A stretch of 64,000 nucleotides of DNA from an uncultured Gammaproteobacteria bacterium (GTDB lineage Bacteria; Patescibacteriota; Patescibacteriia; Magasanikbacterales; UBA922), in contig CAZTEU010000007.1 of assembly GCA_964612105.1 (NCBI GenBank), positions 21,008 to 85,007 on the forward strand. Reading direction: 5' to 3'. Positions 5,140 through 31,227 of this stretch are shown here, one piece after another. Below the pieces are notes generated by a model. The model made no database searches. It saw only the letters and a program-made list of their open reading frames with translations, and was not told the origin of the DNA. The first letter of the stretch is position 1, and every line of letters starts with the position of its first letter. A program made the position numbers and the translations under genes.

Positions 5140-7558
5140 GTCCGAGCATTAAAAACTCAGTAAATCGCTTTCTTCCGGAACAAAGGAAGCCACGTCCCCA
5201 GTACATTCCGACAACTGTCGGTGCCTAGCTTGGACCTCTGGAATATAAGTAGCAAAATCATGTTACACTCAATCACATATTCTAGATACTCAAGCAGGTA
5301 AGACTACCACATATTTGTCCTACCGCTTTACGCGGTTTTTTTCTTCCCTAATTACCAGTCGTTAGTCTCAGTAATAATTGATTACTAAGATTGTACGGAT
5401 GATAATGACTGATCATTACAATTCAATATCAACAAACAAATGTAAATGTTAAATCTTTAGAAAACACAATTCTGTGTTTTCGTAGTGCGCAATTCAAGAG
5501 CGTACGGTGGATGCCTAGACACGTTTTAACGATGAAGGACGTAGCAACCTGCGAAAAGCTTCGGTGAGGTGGTAAGCAACCTTTGACCCGGAGATCTCCG
5601 AATGGGGGAACCCATGTGGTGTAATGACCACATACCTTATGCCCAATACATAAGCATGAGGGGAAGACCTAGCGAAGTGAAACATCTCAGTAGCTAGAGG
5701 AATAGAAAACAACAAAAGCTTTTTATATTCCATTCTCTTGGTTATTGTCTCGAGCCTTCGGGCAAGAGATAGTGACCATTAGATTGGTAGAAAAGTGTGA
5801 TTCCGTAAGTAGTGGCGAGCGAACGCGGAACAGCCCAAACCTATGTTGTGTTGAGAATGGTACGGTTGTCTTCGGATGATTTAGGCCAAACTCTTAAAGG
5901 ACAGACCGTTGCAATATAGGGGTTGTAGGATACAGTATCGGATATCTGTTATGCCGGACATTATATATTTTGTATAGTCGAATATTACTGGAAAGTAAAA
6001 CCAAAGAAGGTGATAGTCCTGTAGACGAAATGCATTATATATAGTGTGTCTGTACTCCTGAGTAGGGCGGGACACGTGAAATCCCGTCTGAATCTGTCGC
6101 GACTATGCGATAAGGCTAAATATAAAACGTGATCGATAGTGAACCAGTACCATGAGGGAAAGGTGAAAAGCAGCCCGGAGAGGGCGGTGAAATAGTTCCT
6201 GAAACCGTACGTTTACAAAGAGCAGGAGTCCGTAAGGACGACTGTGTTCCTATTGAAGAATGAGCCTGCGAGTATGCTATATGTAGCGAGCTTAAGGACC
6301 TACCAGTCCGAAGGCATAGGGAAACCGAGTCTTAACCGGCGATTTAGTTGCATATACATGACCCGAAACCGAGTGAGCAATCCATGACCAGGTTGAACCC
6401 TAAGTAAGATTAGGGGGAGGACCGAACCCACGCACCGTGCAACATGCGGGGATGAGTTGTGGATAGCGGAGAAATTCTAATCGAACTCGGTAATAGCTGG
6501 TTCTCCTCGAAACAGTTTTAGGACTGGCTGTATGTGTTCCCTCTGGGGGTAGAGCACTGGATGTGGTCGGGGCGGTTCGCCGTACCCACTACAATCAAAC
6601 TCCGAATACCAGAGATTAATAGCATGCAAGTTAGACTGTGGGGGCTAAGCTTCACAGTCGAAAGGGAAACAGCCCAGACCACCAACTAAGGTCCCTAAAT
6701 TAATACTAAGTGTTAAAGGTGGTGTTGATTCTTATACAACCAGGAAGTTGGCTTAGAAGCAGCCATCTTTTAAAGATAGCGTAATAGCTCACTGGTCAAG
6801 AGTCTTCGCGCCGAAAATGTACCGGGGCTAAGTATTATACCGAAGTTGTGGCTTCATATATTATTTATAATGTATGAGGGGTAGAGGAGTATTCTCATCG
6901 CGCCGAAGCCGTATCCGTGAGGAACGGTGGAGCAATGAGAAGTAAGAATGCAGGCACGAGTAGCAAAAATGGGTGTGAAAGTCACCCACGCCGAAAACCC
7001 AAGGTTTCCAGGGCCACGAGAATCGTCCCTGGGTTAGTCGATCCTAAGGCCAGGCCGAAAGGCGTAACCGATGGAAGAGCAGGTTAATATTCCTGCACTT
7101 GGTTGTATGTTGTGAATAGGTGTGCATTTCAAAGATCTGAGCGTTGTATGGCTACACGTCACGCAAGTGGAAGACTGCGATTTCGGTCAAAGTCAATTCA
7201 GGTTGGAGAAGTGCCTAGAAAAGCTTATTCATGTCAAGTACAATCAATCCGTACCGCAAACCGACACAGGTGGGTAGGTCGAGAAGACCAAGGCGCACGA
7301 GAGAAACATTGTTAAGGAACTCGGCAAAACAGCGGCCGTAACTTCGGGATAAGGCCCGCCCCATTTCGGTGGGGCTCAACAAAAGATGTCACGCGACTGT
7401 TTACCAAAAACACAGCTCTCTGCTAAATCGTAAGATGACGTATAGGGGGCGATGCCTGGCCAGTGTCAGAACGTTAAAGGGCGGGGTTATTTCTTCGGAA
7501 AGAAGCTCTAAACTGAAGCGCTGATGAACGCCGGCGGTAACTATAACCGTCCTAAGGT

Positions 7559-8301
7559 CAACTTGTTCATTTCTTGGACAAGTTGAGGACTGGGACGGTT
7601 GTATCAAAGACGCTGCCTCAACTTATAGTAATATAAGATTGGTCCATAAATTGTAGTGATATGCAAGAAAATCCTCAAAAGATTGACGCTACTCATTCAG
7701 CAAAGAATTATTCTGATTGAAGCTGAGTAGTAAAAATGTGTCAGTACACGGGGGCAACTTGCAGGTGCACCATTGCACCTCAGAGACTTATAAACTACTA
7801 TCCTATGACATTAAATCCAAATTGGATAGCCGGATTTGTAGATGGTGAAGGTACCTTTTATATAGGTATCAATAAACAGCCTTCTATGACAGCCGGATAT
7901 CAAGTTTTACCGGAGTTCCGTATCGTTCAACACAAACGTGATATAAAATTGCTTCATCAACTCAGGAAATATTTTGAGTCAGGTGTGGTAAGAGTAAATC
8001 ATGATGATCGATACGAACTTAGAATTCGAAGTCTGGATGAACTACAAAAAGTAGTAATTCCATTCTTTGAAAAATATCCACTTCACACGCAAAAGAAGTT
8101 TGACTTCATTAAGTTCAAGAAAGTAGTTAAATTAATGGGACAAAGAGAACATCTTAGCGCGTCAGGAGTGGTAAAGATCATTGATATAGCGAGTAAAATG
8201 AACAGAGAAGATAAGAAAAAAGCACTTGCGATTAAAGAAATGATCAAAAAGACAGGATAAAGACAAAGTCCATGCTAGCTAGAAATAGTTAGAAGGTCCA
8301 G
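7559..8301 (+). mobile_element. Group I-type intron in 23S (after ...CCTAAGGT, E. coli region about 1917) carrying a homing-endonuclease ORF
   Basis: The exon sequence GGTAACTATAACCGTCCTAAGGT is followed at 7559 by 743 nt of non-rRNA sequence. The exon resumes with AGCGAAATTCCTTGTCGGGT at 8302. The 5' exon ends in T and the intron ends in G. Confidence 0.8.
7805..8260 (+). CDS. LAGLIDADG homing endonuclease (single-motif, I-CreI-like size)
   Basis: LNPNWIAGFVDGEGTFYIGI motif near the N-terminus. About 150 aa. Lies entirely within the 23S intron. Confidence 0.8.
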   Translation: MTLNPNWIAGFVDGEGTFYIGINKQPSMTAGYQVLPEFRIVQHKRDIKLLHQLRKYFESGVVRVNHDDRYELRIRSLDELQKVVIPFFEKYPLHTQKKFDFIKFKKVVKLMGQREHLSASGVVKIIDIASKMNREDKKKALAIKEMIKKTG

Positions 8302-8321
8302 AGCGAAATTCCTTGTCGGGT

Positions 8322-8636
8322 GAATGAAATACTATGCGGGTCACGCAAAAGTATCTCGCCCGAATATTCTGGCAACAGAATACAGCAAACCGACTCATAA
8401 CGGTGAAGCCCTAACTCATAATGGAGAGGGTAATACCGTGGGAAGTCGTTCTGATTTATATCAGAATTGACCCCGTAACGACTGACTCGAAAGAGGAGAC
8501 TCGATATGATAATATAATCGGGTAACACGTCGGCTCTTGCCTCAAAAAGACTTCTACGGAGAAAATTCTCCTACGGATAGTCGGCAAGATGAAGGTATAG
8601 TCTAATCATTATAGTAATATAATGCAATTGGAGTTC
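8322..8636 (+). mobile_element. Second, ORF-less intron in 23S, about 20 nt downstream of the first (boundaries approximate)
   Basis: The 20-nt exon AGCGAAATTCCTTGTCGGGT (8302-8321) is followed by about 315 nt with no rRNA similarity. The exon resumes at ...GAGTTCCGACCCGCACGAATGG (8637 onward). Confidence 0.65.
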
Positions 8637-9147
8637 CGACCCGCACGAATGGCACAACGGTGTGACAACTGTCTTAACAATGTACTCGGCGAAAATGCAA
8701 TTGTCGTGAAGATGCGACATTCACGCAGCAAGACGAAAAGACCCCATGAAGCTTTACTACAGTTTGATATTGATAATTTGCTCTACATGTTCAGCATAGG
8801 TGGGAGCCTTCGGGCACCAGTGAGATACCACCCTTGTATTGTGACTTATCTAACTCTGCACCCTGAATCGGGTATGGGGGACAGTATCTGATGGGTAGTT
8901 TGACTGGGGCGGTGGCCTCCTAAACAATAACGGAGGCGTTTACAAAGGTTAGCTTGGTCCGGATGGAAATCGGACTGGACGTGCAAACGCATAAGCTAGC
9001 TTTACTGCAAGGGCTACCACCCGAGCAGTTACGAAAGTAGAAGTTAGTGATCCGACCGTTCAATATAGGATGGCGGAAGCTCAACGGATAAAAGTTACTC
9101 TGGGGATAACAGGCTGATAGCGCCCAAGCGTCCATAGCGACGGCGCT

Positions 9148-9187
<40 letters not shown>

Positions 9188-9188
9188 A

Positions 9189-9270
<82 letters not shown>

Positions 9271-9610
9271 CTATCTGCTGTGTGCGTTGAATATTGAGGA
9301 AACTCGCCCCTAGTACGAGAGGACCGGGGTGGACGAATCTCTGGTGTACCAGTTGTCCTGCCAAGGGCATAGCTGGGTAGCTAAATTCGGCACGGATAAG
9401 CGCTGAAAGCATCTAAGTGCGAAGCCGTTTCCAAGATTAATATTCGTTTGAGAATCGTTCGAGACTAGGACGTTGATAGGCACCAGGTGTAAGATCTAAC
9501 GATCGTAGCCGAGGTGTACTAATATTTCGAGTGTACTACGGAAACACAGAGTTGTTTTTATTAGATACATTTATATTTTTTGTTGAATAACTCTTCATAC
9601 TGAGTATAGA

Positions 9611-9721
<111 letters not shown>

Positions 9722-10081: not shown

Positions 10082-10708
10082 ATGAAGTACAAAAGAGAGA
10101 GTATAAGCCTGTCCTGGAGTTCATGGTTTATGGTCTGCGTGGCCACCACCTGCTTCACAGGCTTTCTTCCTTGGCTTGTTAGAAAGAGAGGTAAAGGAGG
10201 GGGGCTGATTGGTTCTGTTGTGGGAGTGGTGATTGTTGCACTGGTCTTCGCTAGCGAGGGATTCTCCGAACCTTCGTTTGTTGTCCTGTGTCTAACCTCC
10301 TTTCTCCTGTGCATCGGAGTCTTTGCTGTGCAGGACGCAGAGAAGGTCATGCTCCTGAAATGGGGTCGCAGACCTCGTCACACTGGCGAGTGTGCGTACC
10401 ACGACTTCAACGAGACGAACATCGACGAGTTTGTGGGGCAGATGATTGCTTTGCTACCGCTTTGCTTTGTGCATGAACACATGCACTTCATCACAGAACT
10501 GCACTTCTATACTCTACTTCTCACTGGCCTCGCTCTTTTTCGTGTGTTCGACACGACGAAGTGGCTTGGCATCTCACGAGTGGAAAAGTGGAGTACCCTA
10601 AACACCGCTCTGCCAATCATGTTTGACGACGTGCTTGCTGGCATTTATGCAGGGATTGTGCTTGTTGTAGCATTCATCTTGCCGACGTGGTATCACTACC
10701 TCACCTGA
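10082..10708 (+). CDS. pgpA: Phosphatidylglycerophosphatase A (PgpA family); G+C-rich
   Basis: IDEFVGQMIAL and the C-terminal DDVLAGIYAGIVL match PgpA motifs (WDEFIGMW, DDIVAGVISAGILY). Multiple TM segments. GGAGGG lies 6 nt upstream of ATG 10082. TTGACA at 10023-10028. Confidence 0.65.
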   Translation: MKYKRESISLSWSSWFMVCVATTCFTGFLPWLVRKRGKGGGLIGSVVGVVIVALVFASEGFSEPSFVVLCLTSFLLCIGVFAVQDAEKVMLLKWGRRPRHTGECAYHDFNETNIDEFVGQMIALLPLCFVHEHMHFITELHFYTLLLTGLALFRVFDTTKWLGISRVEKWSTLNTALPIMFDDVLAGIYAGIVLVVAFILPTWYHYLT

Positions 10709-10811
10709 CGACGAAAACAAACAAATAGGAGACGAAACGACCCCGCTACGAGTAATCAAAGCGGGGTCAGTTGTTTTTAATTACAATTCCTGTTGGGTAA
10801 TGATTAGAGCT
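10706..10811 (+). repeat. Direct repeat copy 1: duplicate of the xth 3' end (last 11 codons, diverged) plus terminator hairpin
   Basis: A 71-nt block (10727-10797) is identical to 11636-11706, with decaying similarity on both sides. Contains CCCCGCT-acgagtaatcaa-AGCGGGG followed by TCAGTTGTTTTT. Confidence 0.85.
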
Positions 10812-10893: not shown

Positions 10894-11580
10894 ATGGAAG
10901 GACCAAGACCTCTCACCCAGTGGGAACGATCTGGGGTGGTTAGGGTAGGTTATTTGCGTCAATTTCAGTACATGACGCGGATGTTTGCCAGGGTCGTCAA
11001 ACTCAATGGTGATGTAGTGGAGTGTGGACTCGGAATGGGCGGGACTTTCAACATGCTTGCCTATCTTGTCGGAACTGAAAAACGCCCAAGCAGGACTCTT
11101 TGGGGCTATGACTCCTTCGAGGGTTGGCCCGAGCCGGATACCATAGATGACTCTCCGCGTAAGCCTCAGAAAGGAGAATGGAAAGTGAGCGAGGAGACCG
11201 TCTTGGATCACTTGTCTCAATCGGGTATCAGGACAGAGTTTCCAGACCTTAACTTCAAATTGGTTGGGGGCTACCTCTGCGATACTCTTCCTCAAGCTCC
11301 GGATCGTCCGATTGCCCTTCTGCACATCGATGTTGATCTGTATCAGGGCTATGCAGACGCGCTGCTCCATCTATTCCCGATGGTCGAAGTTGGTGGTATC
11401 GTCATGTTCGATGAATATCTGGAGTTTCCAGATCATCCGGACTACATAGATGATTGTCAACCGATTGAGAAGTGGCCTGGATGCACCAAGGCTGTTGACG
11501 AGTTCTTTGCAGACCGTCCTGAGACTCCCCAGCTATATGAAGAGACAGGAAAATACTACGTCGTGAAGCTTGCGCAGTAG
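10894..11580 (+). CDS. TylF/MycF-family (macrocin-type) SAM-dependent O-methyltransferase; G+C-rich
   Basis: GDVVECGLGMGG, LWGYDSFEGWPEP, GGYLCDTLP and PIALLHIDVDLYQGYADALLHLFPMVEVGGIVMFDEY follow the TylF-family (PF05711-like) motif order. Confidence 0.75.
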   Translation: MEGPRPLTQWERSGVVRVGYLRQFQYMTRMFARVVKLNGDVVECGLGMGGTFNMLAYLVGTEKRPSRTLWGYDSFEGWPEPDTIDDSPRKPQKGEWKVSEETVLDHLSQSGIRTEFPDLNFKLVGGYLCDTLPQAPDRPIALLHIDVDLYQGYADALLHLFPMVEVGGIVMFDEYLEFPDHPDYIDDCQPIEKWPGCTKAVDEFFADRPETPQLYEETGKYYVVKLAQ

Positions 11581-11615: not shown

Positions 11616-11720
11616 ACGATGAAAATACAATCCAAAGGAGACGAAACGACCCCGCTACGAGTAATCAAAGCGGGGTCAGTTGTTTTTAATTACAATTCCT
11701 GTTGGGCAATGGTCAGACCC
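11616..11720 (+). repeat. Direct repeat copy 2: native xth 3' end plus terminator, 909 bp downstream of copy 1
   Basis: See copy 1. This copy is contiguous with the intact xth gene on the minus strand. Confidence 0.85.
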
Positions 11721-12932: not shown

Positions 12933-12944
12933 AAATAAGAGAAA

Positions 12945-12967
12945 AGACCTAAGATTAGGTCTTTTTT
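12945..12967 (+). terminator. Rho-independent terminator
   Basis: AGACCTAA-gat-TTAGGTCT followed by TTTTT. Confidence 0.65.
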
Positions 12968-13044
12968 AATCCACCAAAATGGCCTTGTAGCCGGCTATTA
13001 TTTCGTGTATTATACTCCTGCATTAATACAGATTAAATAATAAT

Positions 13045-15435
13045 ATGTATCCAGAACCTCTGTCTCAATATTTACTTAAGCACCTGTCAAATCACCCAGA
13101 ACAGCGAGAGCTTATAATGATAATAAGTGATCTTGCCCGTATTGGTAAAACAATTTCACATCACACAAACAAAGCAGGTCTAGTAGGTATCTTAGGGTCT
13201 GCTGGTAATACGAATATACAAAATGAAGAAGTTCAGAAATTAGATGTCTTTGCAAATAACTTATGCAAAGATATTTTAAAAAACAGTGAACACATTGCTG
13301 CCCTTGCTTCTGAAGAAGAAGATACCGTTGTAGACATGTCTCAACACGGAAGTAATGCAAAATACATTGTTGCTTTTGATCCACTAGATGGATCCACAAA
13401 TATAGATGTAAACGTTAGTATTGGTACAATTTTTTCTGTAATGAAAAAAAGAGAAGATGTAGAACGCACAGATGAAAGGCAATTCTTACAGACTGGAAGA
13501 GAGCAGGTGCTTGCAGGATATATATTGTATGGCTCCAGCACAGTTCTAGTGTTCACGTTTGGAGATGGTGTGCATGAGTTTACATTAGATCCAGACACAA
13601 AAGATTTTTATCTCTCAAACGAAAGAATTACAATTCCAGACAAATGTCCTTACTACAGTATAAATGAGAAAAACATGAGGTATATGACAGAAAAGGACAG
13701 AAATTTTGTAGAAAGCCTTAAGACAGAAAAAGGGTGTGGCGGAAGGTATATAGGCTCTCTTGTTGCAGATATTCACAGGACACTTATAAAAGGAGGTGTG
13801 TTTCTATACTCGGCAATAGATAAAAAAGGTGAAGGGGAATACAAGGGAAAGCTCAGATTAAATTATGAGCTAAAGCCTATGGCATTTTTGATAGAACAAG
13901 CAGGGGGGTTGGCAATTGACGGAGAAAGGAATATACTCGATATTACACCGACCAAACTACATGAAAGGACGCCTATTATAGCAGGAAACAAAAATATAAT
14001 TGAAGATTATTTAATAAATAATAATATGTCTGAGGAATCATACAAGGACCTAAACTCACAGCAAGAGGTTGAATCTCTTGTAAAGGAATCATGTGCAGTT
14101 GGTTTTGATGGAATCAACTCAATTAATGATCAGCAAAAATTACAAGACGATACGATCAAAAGCCTAGCATACAATGCAAGTGTAAGTGAAAATCCAGAAG
14201 TAAAGAAAGCGTCTATATTTTGGATTAATAAGATCGCAGACTTCCTAAAAATAGAATCAGCATCAAATTCAGAGTACTACCAGAAAAAAGCGAATGGAGA
14301 CGACCAATTCTTCACTGTGCCTGCTGTTAACAGTAGAATGGTCACATTTCACACAGTACGCTCAGCTGTACGCTCAGCAGATAAACTAAATATCCCTCAT
14401 CTAATACTAGAATTAGCACTTAGTGAGGTTGGGTACACAGGTCAACAAAAAGACGAGTATTCTGCATTGTGTAAGGCAGCATATATTTCCTTGGGACTAA
14501 AGAACCGTAAAGTATATGTACAAGCGGATCACTACCAGCTTGATCCCAAAAAATATGCAATAGACAAGGATGCTGAGATGCAGAGGATAAAAGACGCTAT
14601 TACAAAAGCAATAGAAAATGGAGTGTATAACATAGATTTAGACTCATCCAAGTTCGAAACAGCAGACCCTAATAAATCAGACAGAGAAAATCAGGGGGAG
14701 AATGCAAGGCTTACAGTTGAACTACTTCATTTTATCCGTAGCTACGAGAAAAGCAAGAATATCCCATCTGTTAGTGTTGGAGGAGAGGTTGGAGAAGTTG
14801 GTGGAGAAAATACAAAATACCCCCAAGTTAATGCTTACCTAGATATGGTTTCAGAACACATGACTAATCTTGGTGCAGGACATGAGAGGGGTCTAGACAA
14901 GATAAGTATCAATGTTGGTTCTGCACATGGGGGAGTGTTAGGCCCAGACGGACAGCCATTAGATGTTGTTCCTCTAGATTTCACAGCTCATCATGATTTG
15001 TTTATGTTTGGAAAAGATCCAATGAACCCAGGTAGGCATGTTTTGGCTGTACAGCACGGAGCTTCTACTCTTCCAAAAAGATACTTCTCACTATTTCCAG
15101 CAATGCATGTTGCAGAAGTTCACTTAGCTACAGGTTTCCAGAATGTTATTTGGGAAGTTTTAGAAAAACACGATAGTGTGTTGTACGAAAAAATGAAAAC
15201 AATGACGTTTGATAAGTTTGGAGATAAGATAGCTGGACACAAAACAGAAGCTATTGGGTTTATGAAAGAAAGAAAACGTGTTACAGAGTTTGTTAAAAAA
15301 GAATTGTTAATGTCTGGAGCCGTAGAAGAAATAGAAAAGGCATTAGATAATGAATTTACAGCAATCTTCCACTCATTATATAACCTATTACAACCAAAAG
15401 CAGGTATTGTTGTAGAAGGTGACAGGTCAGATTAA
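13045..15435 (+). CDS. Fusion protein: class I fructose-1,6-bisphosphatase (N-terminal, about 330 aa) joined to a class II fructose-bisphosphate aldolase-like domain (C-terminal, about 450 aa)
   Basis: FBPase: YIVAFDPLDGSTNIDVNVSIGTIFSV, GYILYGSSTVLVF, RYIGSLVADIHRTLIKGGVFLY, GKLRLNYELKPMAFLIEQAGG. Aldolase II: FTVPAVNS...IPHLILELALSE, VQADHY, NIDLDSS, VGGEVGEVGGEN, INVGSAHGG, VQHGAST, in canonical order. Confidence 0.7.
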   Translation: MYPEPLSQYLLKHLSNHPEQRELIMIISDLARIGKTISHHTNKAGLVGILGSAGNTNIQNEEVQKLDVFANNLCKDILKNSEHIAALASEEEDTVVDMSQHGSNAKYIVAFDPLDGSTNIDVNVSIGTIFSVMKKREDVERTDERQFLQTGREQVLAGYILYGSSTVLVFTFGDGVHEFTLDPDTKDFYLSNERITIPDKCPYYSINEKNMRYMTEKDRNFVESLKTEKGCGGRYIGSLVADIHRTLIKGGVFLYSAIDKKGEGEYKGKLRLNYELKPMAFLIEQAGGLAIDGERNILDITPTKLHERTPIIAGNKNIIEDYLINNNMSEESYKDLNSQQEVESLVKESCAVGFDGINSINDQQKLQDDTIKSLAYNASVSENPEVKKASIFWINKIADFLKIESASNSEYYQKKANGDDQFFTVPAVNSRMVTFHTVRSAVRSADKLNIPHLILELALSEVGYTGQQKDEYSALCKAAYISLGLKNRKVYVQADHYQLDPKKYAIDKDAEMQRIKDAITKAIENGVYNIDLDSSKFETADPNKSDRENQGENARLTVELLHFIRSYEKSKNIPSVSVGGEVGEVGGENTKYPQVNAYLDMVSEHMTNLGAGHERGLDKISINVGSAHGGVLGPDGQPLDVVPLDFTAHHDLFMFGKDPMNPGRHVLAVQHGASTLPKRYFSLFPAMHVAEVHLATGFQNVIWEVLEKHDSVLYEKMKTMTFDKFGDKIAGHKTEAIGFMKERKRVTEFVKKELLMSGAVEEIEKALDNEFTAIFHSLYNLLQPKAGIVVEGDRSD

Positions 15436-15467: not shown

Positions 15468-16484
15468 ATGAAACCGATTCGTATAGCTATTAATGGCTTT
15501 GGCCGTATTGGGCGTATACTAACACGTGTTATTTGGGACAATCCTGCGTTTGAGATTGTGGCAGTTAATAGCAGATCTAATGCAGATATATACGCACATT
15601 TGCTTAAGTTTGATTCAATATATGGAAGATGGGACAAAGCAGTGTCATATGACAATAACTCAGCATTAATAATTGATGGAAAAAGACTTCCATTCCATCA
15701 TGTAAATGGAATAGATAGCGCTCCTTGGAGAGAATATGATGTAGATCTTGTAATTGAGTCTACGGGTGTTTTTAAGGACAGAGCATCTTGTCAGAAACAT
15801 TTGGATGCAGGGGCAAAATATGTTCTTATCACTGCGCCAGCAAAAGAAGAGGACATCACAATGATTTATGGAATTAATCATAATGATTTTGATGCAGAGA
15901 AACATAAAGTTATATCTTCTGCATCATGTACAACTACATGTCTTGCACCTGTTGTAAAAACACTACACAAGAACTTTGGAATTAAGCATGGTACTGTTAT
16001 AACAACACACTCATATACAAATGATCAGCACTTAGTAGATCACCCACACAAGAAAGAAAGTTTTCGTCGTGCGCGTGCAGCAGGTATTTCTATTGTTCCT
16101 ACTGCAACTGGTGCTGCAAAAGCAATTGGAAAAGTTATTCCAGAGCTAAACGGAAAATTAGATGGGAATGCATTGCGTGTGCCTGTTCCTGTAACGTCTA
16201 TCATTAGTTTTGTGGCAGAAGTAGAAAAAACAACAAACCGTGACGAGGTTAATGATTTTTTCCGCAAAGCATCAACAGAAGAGTTTCCAGAGAATTTGAA
16301 CACATCAGATATTGGATTAGTTTCTACAGATTATATTGGTTCTCAATATGGGGCTACAGTAGACACCCTTTCTACATTGGTAACAAATGGAACACAAGTG
16401 TTTGTGCAGGCTTGGTACGATAACGAATGGGGCTATGTATCGCAGATGGCAAAACTACTTCGTCATATTGGAACAAAGATATAA
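15468..16484 (+). CDS. gap: Glyceraldehyde-3-phosphate dehydrogenase (copy 1)
   Basis: INGFGRIGR, and the SCTTNCLAP-type catalytic Cys motif (ASCTTTCLAP). Confidence 0.95.
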   Translation: MKPIRIAINGFGRIGRILTRVIWDNPAFEIVAVNSRSNADIYAHLLKFDSIYGRWDKAVSYDNNSALIIDGKRLPFHHVNGIDSAPWREYDVDLVIESTGVFKDRASCQKHLDAGAKYVLITAPAKEEDITMIYGINHNDFDAEKHKVISSASCTTTCLAPVVKTLHKNFGIKHGTVITTHSYTNDQHLVDHPHKKESFRRARAAGISIVPTATGAAKAIGKVIPELNGKLDGNALRVPVPVTSIISFVAEVEKTTNRDEVNDFFRKASTEEFPENLNTSDIGLVSTDYIGSQYGATVDTLSTLVTNGTQVFVQAWYDNEWGYVSQMAKLLRHIGTKI

Positions 16485-16553: not shown

Positions 16554-17033
16554 CTACATGAAGCTCACGTGCTCGCAGGTCTTCTGCTCCAAGTCAATCA
16601 CGTAAGCCATGCAGTTGTCGAGAGGTCTTTCCGGAAAGCGCTGGACTTCCACTGGAGGCATGTGCAGAAGGTGTTCCGCGATGTACTTCGGCCAGGTCTC
16701 CGTGTACTCATAGTGAGTCACAGCCACCACCACATCGTACAAGGACCCATGCATTGCCATGAGTGTGGTTGCGCGTGGAAGATCTTCTCTTCTTGTTGCA
16801 TCGGACCACAGGACTTCGTGCGAGATGAAGTACTCAAGCAACTCTTCGGAGATGATTTCGGCAGTCTGTGTTGCACGAACTCTCGTGGAAGAGATTACAG
16901 AGCATTTCTGCCCCGCGAACCGCCTCATCAGCACCTTGCCGAGCATTTCTGCAGATTCTCTGCCCATCAGTGACAGAATGCCACCTTCTTCTGGTATGTA
17001 GTTTCCATGCCTCACAAGGACCAAGTATCTCAT
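16554..17033 (-). CDS. Histidine-phosphatase-superfamily protein (SixA/PGAM-like); G+C-rich
   Basis: LVLVRHG (RHG motif), SSTRVRATQTAEI, and a second catalytic His in VAVTHYE. Confidence 0.6.
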   Translation of the reverse strand: MRYLVLVRHGNYIPEEGGILSLMGRESAEMLGKVLMRRFAGQKCSVISSTRVRATQTAEIISEELLEYFISHEVLWSDATRREDLPRATTLMAMHGSLYDVVVAVTHYEYTETWPKYIAEHLLHMPPVEVQRFPERPLDNCMAYVIDLEQKTCEHVSFM

Positions 17034-17392: not shown

Positions 17393-18127
17393 ATGGATAT
17401 ATCACTTCTAAAAAAACTAGGTTTTTCTGACAAAAGCGCCAAAATATACTTGGCGCTGTTATCGTTAGGCCCAAGCTCTGTACGTAAATTGGCAGAAAAC
17501 TGTGATCTTAACCGTGGAACTACATATGATGCACTCAAGTGGTTACAAGAGCAGAAAGTGGTATCTTTTTATGAAAAGGAGAAGAAGCAATTCTTTGTTG
17601 CAGAGCATCCGGATAAGTTAAAAAATATTATTAGAAGTAGAGAGGAAGATCTACAAAGAGCGGATAAGGGATTAGAAAAAATGATACCAGAGTTACTAGC
17701 TCTTCATAATAAAGGAGGAGAGCGCCCAGTTGCACGATACTTTGATCACAAAGAAATATCCCTGATTCTGGAAGATATATTGAATACTTGTGAAGAAAAT
17801 GAAGAAGAGATGTACAGAGTTTATTCTACAGAAGGATTACGCGAACATTTGTATGAAGGATTTGAAACTTTTTCAGATGTACGTGTTTCCAAAAATATTG
17901 GAGTAAAAGTAATTGCAATTGGAGAGGGAGGAAAACTTCGTGGGTTGGACGAAAGAAAGTGGATGAGTGGCAAGACAGACACATCAACATATATAATGAT
18001 ATATCCAGGAAAGACAGCATACATATCTCTTAACGCAAAAAATGAGCCTGTGGGGGTTGTAATAGAAAATGATGGGGTGTATGAAACACAGAAACAAATT
18101 TTTGATCAGCTGTGGAACAGTCTTTAA
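17393..18127 (+). CDS. TrmB-family transcriptional regulator
   Basis: N-terminal LGFSDKSAKIYLALLSLGPSSVRKLAENCDLNRGTTYDALKWLQEQKVV is a TrmB-type winged HTH. Confidence 0.6.
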   Translation: MDISLLKKLGFSDKSAKIYLALLSLGPSSVRKLAENCDLNRGTTYDALKWLQEQKVVSFYEKEKKQFFVAEHPDKLKNIIRSREEDLQRADKGLEKMIPELLALHNKGGERPVARYFDHKEISLILEDILNTCEENEEEMYRVYSTEGLREHLYEGFETFSDVRVSKNIGVKVIAIGEGGKLRGLDERKWMSGKTDTSTYIMIYPGKTAYISLNAKNEPVGVVIENDGVYETQKQIFDQLWNSL

Positions 18128-18136: not shown

Positions 18137-18763
18137 ATGTTAATAGTTGACTTTGATTACACGCTAAACAGAACAGGATTGTTTAAAGAGGAAATAAGAA
18201 AAGTCTTTGCAAGTTTTGGTGTTGATGAGCAAACATTTGAATCTTCGTACCATAAATCAATACAATGGGATGGGGAAGGTTATGGATTTGATTACTCTTT
18301 TGAGATACACATAGAAGTCTTAAAAGAAATGGGAATAGATATTAATTCTGATGATATTCTTTCTAAATTAGACGAAACTATTAAAAAAAGTTATTTGTTC
18401 GATGACGCCATTCCTTTTCTAAATTATTTTCGCTCAAAAGGAGAAAAGATTGTTCTGCTTTCTTCTGGTAATGTTGAATTCCAAAAAAAGAAAGTAGATG
18501 CATCTGGAATTGCAGAACTTGTTGACGAGGTAAAACTATCACATGGGAATAAGGAAAAATACATAGAAAAGGTTATAGATCAAAAACCTTTGTATTTTAT
18601 AAACGATAATTTAAAGGAGAATAATATAATACATGAGCTTTTTCCGGATGTAATAATTCTTGGCATGAAGAATGGTTTTAAGCATGAGACAGAAGACAGA
18701 GGTGAAGATATTCTGTATTTTGATTCGTTAACGGAAATAATGGAGTATGTTAAAAAACTTTGA
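18137..18763 (+). CDS. HAD-superfamily hydrolase
   Basis: Motif I DFDYTLN at the N-terminus. Size is HAD-like. Confidence 0.55.
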   Translation: MLIVDFDYTLNRTGLFKEEIRKVFASFGVDEQTFESSYHKSIQWDGEGYGFDYSFEIHIEVLKEMGIDINSDDILSKLDETIKKSYLFDDAIPFLNYFRSKGEKIVLLSSGNVEFQKKKVDASGIAELVDEVKLSHGNKEKYIEKVIDQKPLYFINDNLKENNIIHELFPDVIILGMKNGFKHETEDRGEDILYFDSLTEIMEYVKKL

Positions 18764-19526
18764 AAACATAGGTGTTGTAATTTTAGCAGCAGGTAAAGGT
18801 ACTCGTTTGGGTTGTTCGGACAAGCCAAAAGTTATGTTGGAGATTGGTGGAAAGCCAATAGTAGAACACACAGTGGATATGTTGTATTCTGTTGGTTTTA
18901 CAAAGCCTCAAATATGTTTAGTAGTTGGTTTTATGGCAAGCTCTGTAAAAAAGCATTTTAAGAATCGTGCGTGTTATGCAACACAAACGGAACAAATTGG
19001 AACAGGACATGCTGCATTTGTTGGTATGAGAAGTTTCCCTAAAAATATTTCTAATGTTCTTGTTTTAGGCGGGGATGATAGTGCGTTTTATACTCCAGAA
19101 ACTATTAAAGATTTTGTATATAAACATATCTCAAGCAATCATGCTGTGTCTGTGTTGTCTGTAAAGAAAGATAATCCAGCAAACCTAGGGCGCATGATAC
19201 GTGATAAAGAAGGGTGCCTTGTTTCTATAAAAGAGAAGGAGCAGTTATTGGAAGAAGAAAATGATATTGATGAAATTAATACAGGCACGTATTGTTTTGA
19301 TAAAGAATGGTATCAGGATGCATTCCTTCGTATGCCAATAATAGAAAAACTAGGAGAGTACGGGCTTAACACAAGTATTCTTATGGCAAGAGAAGATGGA
19401 AAGGGAGTGCAGGCGGTGTGCATAGAAGATGGTGGTGAGTGGTTTGGAGTAAACACTCCTGAAGAATTAGAAGAAGCAAACAAAATAAAATTAGGAACAC
19501 AAACATCACAAACTGTCTCCTCTTAA
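18747..19526 (+). CDS. Sugar-phosphate nucleotidyltransferase (GlmU N-terminal-domain-like, no acetyltransferase domain)
   Basis: VVILAAGKGTRL...PKVMLEIGGKP signature of NTP_transferase-family pyrophosphorylases. Confidence 0.7.
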   Translation: MLKNFENIGVVILAAGKGTRLGCSDKPKVMLEIGGKPIVEHTVDMLYSVGFTKPQICLVVGFMASSVKKHFKNRACYATQTEQIGTGHAAFVGMRSFPKNISNVLVLGGDDSAFYTPETIKDFVYKHISSNHAVSVLSVKKDNPANLGRMIRDKEGCLVSIKEKEQLLEEENDIDEINTGTYCFDKEWYQDAFLRMPIIEKLGEYGLNTSILMAREDGKGVQAVCIEDGGEWFGVNTPEELEEANKIKLGTQTSQTVSS

Positions 19527-19547: not shown

Positions 19548-21371
19548 ATGTGTGGAATTATTGGTTACATTGGTTCTAACAGAGCAACACCTGTCTTGTT
19601 AAATGGCTTACGTAAGTTGGAATATAGAGGCTATGACAGCGCAGGTCTTGCTGTAATTCATGATAAGAAAATTAATTCCATAAAATCAGTTGGTAAGATA
19701 GATAAACTTTCTGAGAAAGTGAGCATTTATCCTCACGAAGCAATTATGGGTATTGCACACACTCGTTGGGCAACACATGGGGGTGTAACAGAAGAGAATG
19801 CTCATCCTCATGTTGTTATGGATGGAAAGCTTGCGCTTGTTCATAATGGAATTATAGAAAATTACAGGGAGATTAAGAAAAAGTTAGGTGATAACATTAA
19901 CTACAAATCAGAAACAGACTCAGAAGTTCTTGCTCACCTAATTGCTTCTCACTACAATGGAGATTTGCGTCATGCAGTAGAGTCTGCGTTACAACATGTT
20001 AGAGGAACATATGGGATTGTAGTTATGCATGAAGACCATCCAGACTGCTTAATTGCCGCAAGGATGGGTAGTCCGCTAGTAATTGGTATGCACAAAGATG
20101 AATATTTTGTAGCAAGCGATCCAACACCAATTTTAGCTCACACAAAGCAAGTGGTTTTTTTGGATGATGGAGAGGTCGCAGAAGTATGCAGAGATGGTGT
20201 TAATACTTTTAATCTTAAAGACGAAAGAGTTGTTAAGTGTGTTGAGGAGATAGATTGGAATGAAAGTGACGCACAAAAACAAGGCTACGACAATTTCATG
20301 TTAAAGGAAATACACGACCAGCCAACAGTCTTCGAAGATGCTATACGTGGTCGTTTTGATATTAAAGAGGGTACAGCAAAACTTGGTGGAATTAATATGA
20401 CACCACAGCAAATGCAAGATATTAAGCGTGTGGTTTTAATTGCATGTGGAACAGCTAGTTATGCTGCGATGGTTGGTAAATATGCTTTCGAGCGTTTAGC
20501 AGGTATTCCAACAGAAATAGATGTTGCAAGTGAATTCCGTTACCGTGATCCAATAATAGATCAGCACACGCTTGTGTTTGGTATTTCTCAATCAGGAGAA
20601 ACTGCAGACACTCTTGCAGCACTTCGTGAGGCAAAAAGAAAAGGCGCTTACGTGCGTGGTATTGTTAATGTTGTTGGTTCTACAATCGCACGAGAGACAG
20701 ATGGTGGTACATACATTCATGCAGGACCAGAGCTTGCTGTTGCTTCTACTAAAGCATATACAAACATGATTGCTGTATTATTGCTGTACGCAATAGAACT
20801 TGGAAGGTTAAAAAGAATAAGTTTAGCAACAGGGCAGAGATTATTAAATGCTCTTCTGGAGGTTCCAACAAAAATGAATGAAATACTGAGTAATAAAGAG
20901 AAAATAAAAGAAATAGCCCTTAAATACAAGGACATGAATAATTGTTTCTTCCTTGGAAGAGGTAATAATTTTCCTGTAGCTTTAGAAGGCTCCCTTAAAT
21001 TAAAAGAAATATCATATATTCACTCAGAAGCATACCCGGGAGGAGAGATGAAACATGGGCCAATTGCATTGCTTAATGAAGATTTCCCAGTAATAGGAAT
21101 AATGACAAAAAATCAGCTATACGATAAAATGAGAAGCAATATAGAAGAGGCAAAGGCTCGTAAAGCAAAAATATTATTAATTGCTACAAATGGTGATGAG
21201 GAAGCAAAAGAATTAGCAGATGATGTAATATATGTCCCTTCTACAATGGAATTGTTACAGCCGTTATTAAACACAATACCATTGCAGTTGTTTGCTTACT
21301 ATATTGCAGTTGCGCTAGACCGTGATGTAGATCGTCCTCGCAATTTAGCTAAAAGTGTTACAGTAGAATAA
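19548..21371 (+). CDS. glmS: Glutamine--fructose-6-phosphate aminotransferase
   Basis: MCGIIGY N-terminal nucleophile, two SIS domains, C-terminal ...KSVTVE. Confidence 0.95.
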   Translation: MCGIIGYIGSNRATPVLLNGLRKLEYRGYDSAGLAVIHDKKINSIKSVGKIDKLSEKVSIYPHEAIMGIAHTRWATHGGVTEENAHPHVVMDGKLALVHNGIIENYREIKKKLGDNINYKSETDSEVLAHLIASHYNGDLRHAVESALQHVRGTYGIVVMHEDHPDCLIAARMGSPLVIGMHKDEYFVASDPTPILAHTKQVVFLDDGEVAEVCRDGVNTFNLKDERVVKCVEEIDWNESDAQKQGYDNFMLKEIHDQPTVFEDAIRGRFDIKEGTAKLGGINMTPQQMQDIKRVVLIACGTASYAAMVGKYAFERLAGIPTEIDVASEFRYRDPIIDQHTLVFGISQSGETADTLAALREAKRKGAYVRGIVNVVGSTIARETDGGTYIHAGPELAVASTKAYTNMIAVLLLYAIELGRLKRISLATGQRLLNALLEVPTKMNEILSNKEKIKEIALKYKDMNNCFFLGRGNNFPVALEGSLKLKEISYIHSEAYPGGEMKHGPIALLNEDFPVIGIMTKNQLYDKMRSNIEEAKARKAKILLIATNGDEEAKELADDVIYVPSTMELLQPLLNTIPLQLFAYYIAVALDRDVDRPRNLAKSVTVE

Positions 21372-21373: not shown

Positions 21374-22321
21374 ATGAATAAAAAGAAAAACATTGTAATA
21401 TTTGGTGGCGCGAACGGCACATCTCTTATTGTACGTTCACTAAAGCCATTTGTAGACGAATACAATATAAATGCTGTAGTTTCTATGAGTGATTCTGGAA
21501 GATCTAGCGCAAAGATGAGAGACGAGGTTGGTTATTTGCCAACAGCAGACTTAATTCGTGTAATATATTCTTTTTCTTCCTACGATTACAATCTGTTAAA
21601 AGAATTATTATACAAGAATAGATTTACCACACATGAAAAATTAAATAATTTTAATATAGGAGCTTTGTTTCTAGGTCTTGCTGGAAAATATACTGATGAT
21701 TTGGTTGCTACTATCAGAGCAATGGAAGAGGTTTTAAAATGTGTAGGGAAAGTATTTCCTGCAACACTAGATATGACAGATCTAAATGTAGAACTAGAGA
21801 GCGGGAGAACAATAAAGGGTGAGGGAGAAATAGATGATCCGGAAGGTTTGCGAGACTCAACCATAAAAAGAGCTTGGTTGGAGAGAGACGGAAAACTTTT
21901 TGATGGAGCAAAAGAAGTTATAGAAAATGCAGATATAATTGTTACTGGCCCAGGGGATCTGTACACCAGTAGTATTGCATCACTCCTAGCAAAAGGAACC
22001 AAAGAGGCCATAGAATTATCTGGTGCACCAATTATATATGTGGCAGGAAATAAATATACAGCAAATGGAGAATTCGCTCCAATAAAACTATCTGAACGTA
22101 TTAGTGCACTAGAAAATTATTTACCAAAGAAAGTAAATAATATAATATATAACAGTCATATTCCGGCTGGAGAAGAGAAAGGGTTATATAATAAGAAGCA
22201 TTGGGGAATATTAGAAAATGACATGGAAGAAGAACGAGTTAATGTTTCTGATTTTGAACGTAAGGGTGGTGGTATTTCTACAAAAAAACTTGGTAAAATA
22301 TTAAAGGATATTATTATCTAA
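21374..22321 (+). CDS. YvcK/CofD-family protein (UPF0052, gluconeogenesis-factor/GlmR-like)
   Basis: IVIFGGANGTSLIV...SMSDSGRSSAKMRDE and GPGDLYTSSIASLL motifs. Confidence 0.7.
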   Translation: MNKKKNIVIFGGANGTSLIVRSLKPFVDEYNINAVVSMSDSGRSSAKMRDEVGYLPTADLIRVIYSFSSYDYNLLKELLYKNRFTTHEKLNNFNIGALFLGLAGKYTDDLVATIRAMEEVLKCVGKVFPATLDMTDLNVELESGRTIKGEGEIDDPEGLRDSTIKRAWLERDGKLFDGAKEVIENADIIVTGPGDLYTSSIASLLAKGTKEAIELSGAPIIYVAGNKYTANGEFAPIKLSERISALENYLPKKVNNIIYNSHIPAGEEKGLYNKKHWGILENDMEEERVNVSDFERKGGGISTKKLGKILKDIII

Positions 22322-22654: not shown

Positions 22655-23809
22655 ATGAATCTATACGAATTTGAAGGAAAAAATATTTTTAGTAAATTCG
22701 ACATCTCTATTCCAAAGGGTTTTAACGTAAAAAGAGGAGAAGATGTTATTTTGGAATATAATAGTTTAGGAGTTACAGATGTTGTAGTAAAAGCACAGGT
22801 ATTGTCTGGAAAAAGAGGGAAGAATAATGCTATATTGTTTTGTTCATCAGCAGAAGAAACCTCTCAGGCAGTAAAAGACCTTTTCAATATGGATGTGCGC
22901 GGACAGTATGTTGCATCTGTAAGAGTAGAAGAAAAATTAAACATTATAGAAGAACACTATCTCTCCATCACTTATGATACAAATGGTAAACAGCTGATAC
23001 TTGTGTACTCTGCAGAAGGTGGGGTGGATATAGAAGATGTTCCGGATGAAAAAATACAGAAAATTCATTTAGACATAAGGAGTGAAAATCCAGACAATCT
23101 CCCAAACGAGTGTAAAGAAGTGGCACAGAAGCTTTGGAAGTGTTTTTTAGATAGCGACACACGTCTTGTGGAAATAAATCCACTTGTAAAAACAGAAAAG
23201 GGAGATTGGGTTGCAGCAGACGCAAAAATTGCGATAGATGATGATGCTTTCTTTAGGCATGATGAGTGGAAAGCTTTAGAGCCAAGAACAATGATGGGTC
23301 GCCCACCAACAGAACGAGAGGTTTCGGTAAAAGAAATAGATAAAGGAGAGGGGTATTATCGTGGTACAGCTGGAAAATATATAGAGATGGATGGTGATAT
23401 AGCTGTGCTTTTCTCTGGGGGTGGTGCAAGTATTGCAAACATGGACGAGCTACAAAAAAATGGTTTGTCTGCATCTAACTATACAGAATACTCTGGAAAC
23501 CCTCCTCAGGAAAAAGTATACGAATTAGCAAAGATAGTACTATCTAAACCCGGACTAAAAGGATTATGGATTGCAGGAGGAGTTTCTAACTTTACAGACG
23601 TAGGTGCAACCTTTGCTGGAATTATACAAGCACTAGATGAGATTAAACCAAAATATCCAATTGTTATTCGTCGTGCTGGTGTAAATGAAAAAGAAGGTAT
23701 GAGATTAATGAGAGAGTGTGGCGAAAGAAATAATCTCAACATAAAATACTTTGGTAAGGAAATTTCAATGGGCGAGACAGCAGGTGAGTTAGCAAAAATG
23801 ATAAATTAA
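22655..23809 (+). CDS. sucC: Succinyl-CoA synthetase beta-subunit-like (ATP-grasp) protein
   Basis: MNLYEFEGKNIFSKF N-terminus typical of SucC. Length 384 aa. Confidence 0.8.
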   Translation: MNLYEFEGKNIFSKFDISIPKGFNVKRGEDVILEYNSLGVTDVVVKAQVLSGKRGKNNAILFCSSAEETSQAVKDLFNMDVRGQYVASVRVEEKLNIIEEHYLSITYDTNGKQLILVYSAEGGVDIEDVPDEKIQKIHLDIRSENPDNLPNECKEVAQKLWKCFLDSDTRLVEINPLVKTEKGDWVAADAKIAIDDDAFFRHDEWKALEPRTMMGRPPTEREVSVKEIDKGEGYYRGTAGKYIEMDGDIAVLFSGGGASIANMDELQKNGLSASNYTEYSGNPPQEKVYELAKIVLSKPGLKGLWIAGGVSNFTDVGATFAGIIQALDEIKPKYPIVIRRAGVNEKEGMRLMRECGERNNLNIKYFGKEISMGETAGELAKMIN

Positions 23810-23810
23810 T

Positions 23811-24707: not shown

Positions 24708-24718
24708 TAATTATACGT

Positions 24719-30972: not shown

Positions 30973-31082
30973 ATCTCCGATCTACGGATCGGCAAGGAGA
31001 ACGCGCCAACAGCCTGCGGATTTACATCCAAAGGCTCGAGGCGCGCTCACAGTGTTTCTTTTCTCAAGGAGATAGTGTGGGG

Positions 31083-31104
31083 ATGGTGAGTATATACTCA
31101 CCAT
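31083..31104. terminator. 22-bp perfect palindrome ATGGTGAGTATATACTCACCAT (probable terminator of the island gene; overlaps the tRNA promoter -35)
   Basis: Perfect dyad with a TATATA centre. Same architecture as the eno terminator at 52650-52675. Confidence 0.4.
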
Positions 31105-31132
31105 TGAAATATTTAAGACTTTTTGTTATAGT
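31104..31132 (+). promoter_or_regulatory. Promoter of tRNA-Ile
   Basis: TTGAAA (31104-31109), 17-nt spacer, TATAGT (31127-31132), about 20 nt upstream of the tRNA. Confidence 0.5.
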
Positions 31133-31151
31133 ATTAGCGTTTTCTAGGTAT

Positions 31152-31227
31152 GGGCCTGTAGCTCAGTGGTTAGAGCACAACGCTTATAACGTTGGGGTCG
31201 GCGGTTCAATTCCACCCAGGCCTACCA
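31152..31227 (+). tRNA. tRNA-Ile with anticodon UAU (AUA-decoding); CCA encoded
   Basis: GGGCCTG-TA-GCTC-AGTGGTTA-GAGC-A-CAACG-CTTATAA-CGTTG-GGGTC-GGCGG-TTCAATT-CCACC-CAGGCCT-A-CCA. Anticodon loop positions 34-36 are TAT, with A37. The body closely resembles the E. coli tRNA-Ile1 scaffold. Confidence 0.8.

Follow-up and report, generated by a model that had tools for sequence, protein, structure and literature searches.

An apparent stop-loss fusion of a class I fructose-1,6-bisphosphatase with a long-form class II aldolase-like domain in a lineage of the Candidate Phyla Radiation

Do two consecutive enzymes of gluconeogenesis reside on one polypeptide in a bacterium of the Candidate Phyla Radiation (CPR), and if they do, how did they come to be joined? 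The question is raised by a locus on contig CAZTEU010000007.1 (assembly GCA_964612105.1), of which a 64,000-nucleotide stretch, referred to here as the window, was analysed. On its forward strand, positions 13045-15435 form an open reading frame (ORF) that begins with ATG and runs through 796 codons without interruption. A preliminary sequence-only reading had proposed that this ORF encodes a class I fructose-1,6-bisphosphatase (FBPase) and a domain of the class II fructose-1,6-bisphosphate (FBP) aldolase type in a single chain, and this architecture holds, both domains being placed by Pfam on the one 796-residue product. The fusion is real; taken as a whole, the locus is likely to represent a recent event, created by the loss of a stop codon, with a product that is most likely a bifunctional aldolase and FBPase. 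The fused gene and its immediate setting comprise the following elements.

13045 to 15435, forward strand: fused fbp::fba ORF, 796 amino acids plus stop, recognized by Pfam and NCBIfam and by the identical protein on at least 23 contigs
13045 to 14013, forward strand: class I FBPase domain, residues 1-323, from Pfam, NCBIfam and alignment to E. coli Fbp (2GQ1)
14014 to 14025, forward strand: junction codons I324-N325-N326-N327 (ata aat aat aat), the site of the former fbp stop and spacer
14017 to 14028, forward strand: AATAATAATATG, the internal Met328 codon in a 12-nucleotide context that is found likewise where fbp starts (13036-13047) and where an ORF starts at 50514
14026 to 15435, forward strand: long-form class II FBP-aldolase-like domain, M328-D796, equivalent to a standalone 470-residue gene in relatives
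15468 to 16484, forward strand: gap, encoding a type I glyceraldehyde-3-phosphate dehydrogenase (GAPDH), 32 nucleotides 3' of the fused ORF and the conserved third gene of the operon
12942 to 12965, no strand assigned: terminator-like hairpin after the upstream gene, a 10-bp stem followed by a T-run, which marks the 5' limit of the fbp::fba-gap unit

Pfam divides the fused protein into FBPase (PF00316, residues 7-192, 196.7 bits with a cutoff of 34.8), FBPase_C (PF18913, residues 197-321, 134.1 bits with a cutoff of 27) and F_bP_aldolase (PF01116, residues 422-751, 40.1 bits with a gathering score of 25.5). The peptide that spans the junction is IEDYLINNNMSEESYK. The location directly upstream of gap, also part of the sequence-only reading, is confirmed by the TIGR01534 match of the gap product (393 bits). 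The GC content of the FBPase half (0.36), the aldolase half (0.38) and gap (0.38) is like that of the host genome.

By all sequence tests, residues 1-323 are an intact class I FBPase. The half is matched over its full length by both Pfam models, and it passes the NCBIfam model for class 1 FBPase, NF006778, with 380 bits (cutoff 368). The diagnostic motifs, which had been assigned to residues 1 to about 330, are indeed all found within the domain: SEEED at 89-93, DPLDGS at 112-117, YSINE at 204-208, RYIGSLVADIHR at 234-245, KLRLNYELKPMAF at 269-281 and EQAGG at 284-288. The closest solved structure is that of E. coli Fbp (2GQ1, 272.7 bits), with which the half shares the ASEEED acidic metal loop, DPLDGSxNID, YSINE, RYIGSLVADxHR and KLRLxYExxPMAFxxEQAGG. 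When the metal- and substrate-binding motifs were aligned with 2GQ1 and with rabbit FBPase 1BK4, all were present, and no inactivating change was seen in this alignment of motifs to solved FBPases. The resemblance to E. coli Fbp and NF006778 thus extends over the full length and the conserved motifs of residues 1-323; the difference is that the fused protein has no stop near residue 323 and runs on into the aldolase.

The C-terminal half belongs to the class II aldolase superfamily, by PF01116, by fold and by metal ligands, and falls in an uncurated long subfamily. PF01116 is its top Pfam match and the sole one above threshold; no rival TIM-barrel family scores above it, the GatZ_KbaZ-like PF08013 staying below threshold at 23.2 bits (threshold 26.7), and TIGR02810 gives 17.1 bits vs 568.8. 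The F_bP_aldolase match at 422-751 upholds the assignment made at the outset, although the unit begins at M328 and not near residue 400, where it had been drawn. Its length, which had been remarked as unusual, is indeed so, and arises because its family is long: the half belongs to a family of standalone proteins of 447-480 amino acids, for which more than 5,000 matches were scored. Residues 328-796 are 56-76% identical to long-family members from CPR bacteria and 33-40% identical to those of Nitrospinota, Chloroflexota, Gemmatimonadota, Acidobacteriota, Aquificales, Leptospirillum, Omnitrophota, Brocadia and others. Among named homologues, those of Candidatus Magasanikbacteria are the nearest. 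Standalone long-form aldolase-like proteins (for example P0002 from GCA_965231005.1, and P0013 and P0037, which are named as class II FBP aldolases of 'Candidatus Magasanikbacteria') carry the same invariant motifs as the fused half and differ from it in that every one is encoded by a separate gene.

No solved structure of the long family was found in the PDB, where the best TMq was 0.57; when the PDB was searched directly with the C-terminal sequence, nothing significant emerged, and a family profile gave marginal matches only. The fold was therefore judged from an AlphaFold (AF2) model of the aldolase half (pLDDT 91.6, pTM 0.91), in which an alpha/beta N-terminal extension of about 95 residues (328-420) precedes the barrel, a helical extension of about 85 amino acids lies at the C-terminus, and the opening 12 or so residues are of low confidence. 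In a Foldseek search of the PDB with this model, the top 25 matches all belonged to the class II aldolase family, comprising 24 catalytic aldolases and GatZ 2fiq (E 6e-12 to 1e-9, probability 1.0). Leading by E-value were SqiA 8Q57, AgaY 1GVF, the B. anthracis enzyme 3Q94, the H. pylori enzyme and E. coli 1B57/5VJE. Canonical class II aldolases (E. coli FbaA 1B57/5VJE, AgaY 1GVF, SqiA 8Q57 and B. anthracis 3Q94) have in common with the fused half the TIM barrel, the Asp-His pair, the three His residues and the PAVN and GG motifs. They differ in that the fused half is some 110-190 residues longer, with its N- and C-terminal extensions, and sequence similarity to them is marginal (14-19% identity, hhalign probability 32%). 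Active-site residues were mapped by HMMER profile alignments to KbaY/AgaY and by hhalign to E. coli FbaA (fbaA from NC_000913.3), whose residues are given in the numbering of the literature.

14527 to 14532, forward strand: D495-H496, equivalent to FbaA D109-H110, the catalytic Asp and first metal-binding His
14785 to 14787, forward strand: E581 (GGEVGEVGG), which aligns with the conserved E-x-G Glu of AgaY and SqiA
14926 to 14928, forward strand: H628 (GSAHGG), equivalent to FbaA H226
15055 to 15057, forward strand: H671 (VQHGAST), equivalent to FbaA H264
15121 to 15123, forward strand: H693 (HLATGFQ), aligned with FbaA N286

The Asp-His pair and the three metal-binding His residues are thus retained in the C-terminal half, as are the metal motifs of the FBPase, and D495/H496, H628 and H671 are invariant across 32 diverse members of the long family. 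E581 would be the counterpart of FbaA E174. Alignment of the mobile loop that holds FbaA E182 is ambiguous; by the motif GGEN/GGEE it corresponds to E588/N589, of which N589 is invariant and position 588 is mostly Lys in the long family.

Gene neighbours lend support to a putative role of the long family as FBP aldolase. In the CPR clade the long aldolase gene lies between fbp and gap; fbp also adjoins it in Brocadia (L089), in a metagenome-assembled genome (MAG) of Syntrophales (L063) and in an unclassified bacterial MAG (L067), and is about 1.2 kb from it in Persephonella (L047). Among 113 flanking ORFs of distant loci, the recurrent metabolic families were phosphoglucose isomerase (PGI, 5), phosphofructokinase (PFK, 4) and FBPase (2), all of which act on fructose 6-phosphate (F6P) or FBP; these counts are lower bounds, as 113 of 143 flanking ORFs were scanned and the longest ORF was chosen for each flank. 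In one locus of the same CPR clade (L003), the gene in the slot after fbp encodes a bona fide aldolase of class I (PF00274, 454 bits), itself fused to the FBPase. Replacement in place by an unrelated FBP aldolase is good evidence that the slot encodes this function.

How the two genes came to be joined is apparent from relatives, surveyed for split and fused versions, in which the fbp-fba-gap operon is unfused. In the nearest complete genome (GCA_965231005.1, 1.23 Mb; locus L002), fbp (324 amino acids), the aldolase gene (470 amino acids) and gap are separate, the fbp stop is 2 nucleotides from the ATG of the aldolase gene, and these two genes are in different frames. The same gene order, with TAA and a 9-nucleotide spacer, is found at L010/L011 (GCA_040960375.1) and in Candidatus Magasanikbacteria RIFCSPHIGHO2_02_FULL_47_14 (L012); genomes of relatives are of 1.1-1.2 Mb. 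At the junction, the sequence is '...tat tta aat ata TAA at ATG gca...' in L002 and '...tat tta ata aat aat aat ATG tct...' in the window. With the stop gone and the frames coincident, the original Met of the aldolase is kept as M328, after INNN. Since the relatives are unfused and their genes adjacent, the fusion appears to have arisen by loss of the fbp stop in the AT-rich spacer. Identity between orthologues of L002 and the window is 79% for fbp, 76% for the aldolase, 81% for gap and 78% for trmB; for L010 it is about 63%. Because the L002 orthologues are unfused, the fusion is younger than the split from that lineage, and most of the divergence between window and L002 (20-25% at the amino acid level, at which dS is saturated) is older than the fusion. 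On this comparison of sequences, the fusion is to be viewed as a recent, lineage-specific stop-loss event in one marine, Magasanikbacteria-like CPR lineage. An ancestral operon fbp - fba - gap would have had an AT-rich spacer of 2-9 nucleotides between its first two genes, small changes in the spacer would have removed the fbp stop and put both genes in frame, and ribosomes would now read from the FBPase (1-323) via INNN into the former start Met, M328, of the long aldolase (328-796).

Across 24 data blocks, at least 23 contigs carry the exact 796-residue protein, from JGI, ENA (several BioSamples), NCBI and Logan assemblies; sources include JGI 3300008627 and 3300007508 and ENA ERZ23499038, ERZ23499059 and ERZ23498677. 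Five loci that carry the fused protein are 99.97-100% identical to the window in DNA, with the junction unchanged, and none of seven independent contigs compared (L001, L005-L009 and L092) has an indel at 14000-14030. Outside this group the fusion is not seen. No other protein matched both halves in a full-length phmmer search of 1.84 billion cluster representatives, the combination of PF00316 with PF01116 was confined to the window's own cluster in a 5.8-billion-sequence database clustered at 90% identity, and 0 of 80 loci taken from species-representative genomes (the two close relatives L012 and L013 and 78 distant homologues) were fused. Long matches in the representative search that might have been taken for FBPase-aldolase fusions were set aside on inspection: P0122 is a tandem FBPase, P0255 is FBPase with RNase H, and P0148, P0208, P0220, P0265 and P0184 carry unrelated extensions.

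In the fused protein, known parts make up a new domain architecture, which does not point to a new catalytic mechanism. Catalytic and metal-binding residues are retained in each of the two domains, so that the encoded protein is most likely bifunctional for two consecutive gluconeogenic steps. In the predicted scheme, the aldolase domain would condense dihydroxyacetone phosphate (DHAP) and glyceraldehyde 3-phosphate (GAP) to FBP, and the FBPase domain would convert FBP to F6P and inorganic phosphate (Pi). GAPDH, co-expressed with the fusion, would supply GAP, and F6P would probably be drawn by GlmS, encoded 4 kb downstream, into the synthesis of amino sugars and the cell envelope. We infer that both activities are present, that they work in the gluconeogenic direction and that GlmS is linked to them. 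The genes of the downstream region that bear on this scheme are the following.

17393 to 18127, forward strand: sugar-responsive regulator of the TrmB family, whose position near the operon is conserved in relatives
18747 to 19526, forward strand: sugar-1-phosphate nucleotidyltransferase like the N-terminal domain of GlmU, by profile matches
19548 to 21371, forward strand: glmS, glutamine--fructose-6-phosphate transaminase, which consumes F6P (NF001484, 803 bits with a cutoff of 381)
21374 to 22321, forward strand: CofD/YvcK-related protein (TIGR01826, 164.6 bits, below the cutoff of 196)

A HAD hydrolase gene follows the TrmB gene on the same strand. The TrmB-family regulator also lies downstream of fbp-fba-gap in L002 (9089-9823) and L010 (7880-8623), with 66-78% identity; archaeal regulators of this family control glycolytic and gluconeogenic genes. 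The YvcK family is one that binds UDP-N-acetylglucosamine.

Fusion guarantees a single chain, obligatory 1:1 synthesis of the two domains and their proximity; it may also be selectively near-neutral. FBPases are normally tetramers, and class II FBP aldolases dimers or tetramers. The sequence-only reading had gone further, proposing that the pair would channel triose phosphates irreversibly to F6P. In its adaptive form, this reading holds that the fusion was selected for direct passage of FBP from aldolase to FBPase, which would make the conversion effectively unidirectional, protect its intermediates and be convergent with the archaeal enzyme. Such adaptive substrate channelling is rather unlikely. 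It is favoured by the consecutive nature of the two reactions, by recovery of the intact fused allele in nearly all assemblies, by the second, independent fusion of FBPase to an aldolase in the same clade (P0269, at L003) and by the proximity of fbp and the long aldolase gene in several phyla. Against these stand the confinement of the fusion to a single 90%-identity cluster though thousands of genomes hold both genes, a junction of only four residues (INNN) that derives from stop loss and includes no evolved linker, the circulation of disrupted alleles, the native initiation context retained at M328, and the status of P0269 as a singleton on one 2.6-kb contig. Doubtful, too, is the broader proposition that a selected, channelling bifunctional enzyme would be a second independent solution to unidirectional gluconeogenesis, with FBPase-aldolase fusions recurring in the CPR clade because PFK-poor, host-dependent bacteria need efficient flow from triose phosphates through F6P to amino sugars.

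The analogy to the archaeal-type FBP aldolase/phosphatase (class V FBPase) stands for overall chemistry and for nothing beyond it. Like that enzyme, the fused protein would on its predicted activities convert triose phosphates to F6P on one chain in the gluconeogenic direction. The archaeal-type enzyme is a single domain with one active site that remodels between states, whereas the fusion places two conventional enzymes, unrelated to it in sequence and fold, head to tail, and no match of the fused protein to the archaeal-type family was found in Pfam or NCBIfam (E <= 0.1). The archaeal-type bifunctional enzyme was reportedly described by Say and Fuchs in 2010. Its presence has been noted within the CPR in Gottesmanbacteria (bioRxiv 10.1101/386292), beyond which nothing relevant on gluconeogenesis in CPR bacteria or Magasanikbacteria was found in the literature library searched.

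Several observations weigh against a bifunctional product of the fused gene, and the first of them concern the aldolase half. Its PF01116 match is weak at 40 bits, curated equivalogs of class II FBP aldolase miss it (TIGR01859 with 14.5 vs 343 bits, NF005284 with 12.8 vs 406), and the family to which it belongs is widespread, uncurated and biochemically uncharacterised. By structural coverage, the top Foldseek matches are GatZ 2fiq (TMq 0.57) and the UxaE/tagatose-4-epimerase group (TMq 0.5-0.56). The entire long family has His at the position of FbaA Asn286, and the motif-aligned counterpart of the mobile-loop Glu182 is Asn. In FbaA, Asn286 binds DHAP. Since all of the long family shares the change of Asn286 to His, this change characterises the family and is not a defect of the fused gene; because of this His and of the Asn aligned with Glu182, catalysis by the long family may deviate in detail from that of FbaA.

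From these features it might be argued that the C-terminal half is some other enzyme of the class II superfamily, for example a GatZ/UxaE-type sugar-phosphate 4-epimerase or an aldolase that acts on another ketose phosphate, and that the fusion couples FBPase to a different reaction on F6P. The GatZ_KbaZ-like score of 23 bits, near threshold, points the same way as the structural coverage and the His at N286, and 4-epimerisation of sugar phosphates is a reported activity of class II aldolases (PMC5434028). This alternative is improbable all the same. The only Pfam match over threshold is that to PF01116, the Asp-His pair and all three metal-binding His residues are conserved, and the lowest Foldseek E-values are those of catalytic aldolases. 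The setting of the CPR gene between fbp and gap, the PFK, PGI and FBPase neighbours elsewhere, and the class I FBP aldolase (454 bits) in the equivalent slot of L003 likewise argue for FBP aldolase.

The remaining contrary observations concern the integrity of the fused gene. Disruptive changes are found in two almost identical variants of the population. In one assembly (L001), an 11-nucleotide deletion at 13450-13460, flanked by AGA(A) microhomology, frameshifts the FBPase at residue 136; the same contig has a 1-nucleotide deletion at 11718 in an exonuclease gene. In another (L092), a C->A change at about window position 14628 converts TAC to TAA and creates a nonsense codon at Y528, in the near-invariant YNIDxD motif of the aldolase half. 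A scaffold gap was considered as the cause of the split ORF of L092 and dropped, as the sequence contains no Ns and the change is C->A nonsense. The disrupted alleles in these two assemblies are compatible with relaxed selection; they could be consensus errors of low coverage. In addition, the 12-mer AATAATAATATG is retained at M328 and also stands ahead of fbp and of the ORF that starts at 50514. Because this native start context is kept, independent initiation of the aldolase is plausible, and a free aldolase may also be made from the internal M328.

It could be held on these grounds that the fusion is a neutral or mildly deleterious accident on the way to gene decay, in a host-dependent bacterium for which FBPase, the fusion or both are dispensable, with functional aldolase arising from M328. 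The two loss-of-function alleles fall one in each half, and M328 shares the 12-nucleotide context of bona fide starts. Native gene starts (for example 13036-13047, 14017-14028 and 50505-50516) have AT-rich leaders, often aaataaatATG or aataatATG, without a Shine-Dalgarno sequence, which makes internal initiation plausible. Decay is nonetheless a decidedly unlikely account: the intact 796-residue sequence is identical in at least 23 contigs of several sample series, all catalytic motifs are intact in both halves, and the disrupted alleles are possibly low-coverage consensus errors. Finally, a 1-nucleotide indel error in the AT-rich spacer might have merged separate genes, for which a single indel would suffice given that those of L002 are 2 nucleotides apart in different frames, but the junction and the protein recur unchanged on at least 23 contigs of independent origin in sample and assembler (JGI, ENA, NCBI and Logan), which rules out an assembly or sequencing artefact for practical purposes, and with it the frameshift error for which the sequence-only reading had advised a check.

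A recent stop-loss fusion of two probably functional enzymes is thus the favoured explanation of the locus, and to our knowledge a class I FBPase fused to a class II aldolase has not been described before. No description of a natural fusion of class I FBPase with a class II (or class I) aldolase was found in the full-text literature library searched. The nearest parallel is P0269 itself (L003, from the Logan assembly of SRR22388163), an independent FBPase-aldolase fusion in the CPR clade, represented by its one contig. It has the same domain order and a short read-through linker (YLPLTSH, 7 residues) into the aldolase's own Met, its FBPase is 67% identical to that of the window, and a Pribosyltran gene lies downstream; identities of L003 to L002 and L010 are 64-67% for FBPase and 72-73% for Pribosyltran. 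It differs in that its PF00274 aldolase is of class I (Schiff-base), mechanistically and evolutionarily distinct from class II. Two other candidates were excluded from support as probable frameshift artefacts: P0279 (L004), a partial DeoC-type aldolase with FBPase on a contig of 2.35x coverage in a Planctomycete-like context, and P0423 (L093), GlpX with a class I aldolase, in which the GlpX C-terminus reads like out-of-frame sequence. Natural fusions of consecutive glycolytic enzymes include phosphoglycerate kinase-triosephosphate isomerase (PGK-TPI) of Thermotoga and TPI-GAPDH of stramenopiles; these resemble the present case in joining neighbouring pathway enzymes in one chain and differ in the enzyme pairs. 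Further fusions met with in metagenomes, P0281 and P0318, combine a phosphoenolpyruvate (PEP) synthase/pyruvate phosphate dikinase (PPDK)-like protein with FBPase (1,132 amino acids) and FBPase with phosphoribulokinase (PRK) and transketolase (1,043 amino acids).

The significance of the fusion is limited by its youth and its restriction to one lineage. If both domains are active, it would nevertheless constitute a natural tethered pair for two committed steps of upper gluconeogenesis, and would allow a clean test of whether end-to-end fusion of FBP aldolase and FBPase brings a channelling benefit, by comparison with the unfused L002 orthologues (76-79% identical). Whether tethering has this benefit bears on the engineering of Calvin-cycle or gluconeogenic flux, and on why archaea have a dedicated bifunctional enzyme. 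The locus also indicates that fusions arise easily in compact CPR genomes with spacers of 2-9 nucleotides, and it draws attention to the long class II aldolases as a large, unstudied family that has His in place of Asn286 and extends over Nitrospinota, Chloroflexota, Gemmatimonadota, anammox bacteria, CPR and others.

Other features of the window deserve brief mention. Just after gap, a gene on the reverse strand (16554-17033) encodes a 159-residue member of the histidine phosphatase superfamily (His_Phos_1, 27 bits). The gene has a GC content of 51-53% and a GGGAGG Shine-Dalgarno sequence. In L002 and L010 a Pribosyltran gene occupies this position, and the histidine phosphatase gene is probably a horizontal replacement. 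A second GC-rich island (48-51%, vs about 35-39% for the genome) contains a TylF-type O-methyltransferase ORF (10894-11580) with a Shine-Dalgarno sequence, flanked by direct repeats of about 95 nucleotides (10708-10802 and 11616-11711) with 93% identity, the second of which overlaps an exonuclease III-like gene at its 3' end. The island looks horizontally acquired. GGAGG-type motifs precede the ORFs at 10894, 16554, 28309, 31077 and 38498, which include the GC-rich island genes at 10894 and 16554, and the contrast with the native starts may help to flag foreign genes in the host genome.

Upstream of the fused gene, the 23S rRNA gene (5481-9542) is 4,062 bp in length vs 2,925 nucleotides for the Rfam model, with insertions of about 1.1 kb, and within it an ORF (7736-8260) encodes a LAGLIDADG homing endonuclease of 174 amino acids (98.7 bits). 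A 5S rRNA gene follows at 9613-9719, and no 16S rRNA gene was found in the 5.4 kb upstream of the 23S rRNA gene, where tRNA-Leu (10-92) is the only RNA gene. CPR bacteria typically have rRNA genes that bear introns and are unlinked. The interrupted 23S rRNA gene, the Magasanikbacteria homologues, the 1.1-1.2 Mb genomes of relatives and the native starts devoid of Shine-Dalgarno sequences all point to a probable CPR/Patescibacteria host. A tRNA-Ile gene with the anticodon TAT (UAU) lies at 31152-31227, within the 5' part of a GTG-start ORF (31077-32201) for an RluD-like pseudouridine synthase. Because of the tRNA gene in this position, the true start of the RluD-like gene probably lies 3' of it. 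Isoleucine tRNAs with the UAU anticodon are rare in bacteria.

Three genes on the forward strand at 22655-25459, encoding ATP-grasp_2 with Citrate_bind (384 amino acids), CoA_binding with Ligase_CoA (298 amino acids) and a citrate synthase C-terminal domain (246 amino acids), resemble a split ATP-citrate lyase or citryl-CoA synthetase/lyase. This would be unexpected in CPR organisms, which are usually without enzymes of the tricarboxylic acid (TCA) cycle. An 887-residue ORF at 28309-30972 (forward strand), with a Shine-Dalgarno-type start, contains nine Dicty_CTDC (Dictyostelium Cys-rich) repeats (164 bits) and is odd for a bacterium. At 1434-2588, also on the forward strand, is the gene for a 384-residue protein of the TMEM43 family (PF07787, 190 bits), which is best known among eukaryotic nuclear-envelope proteins.

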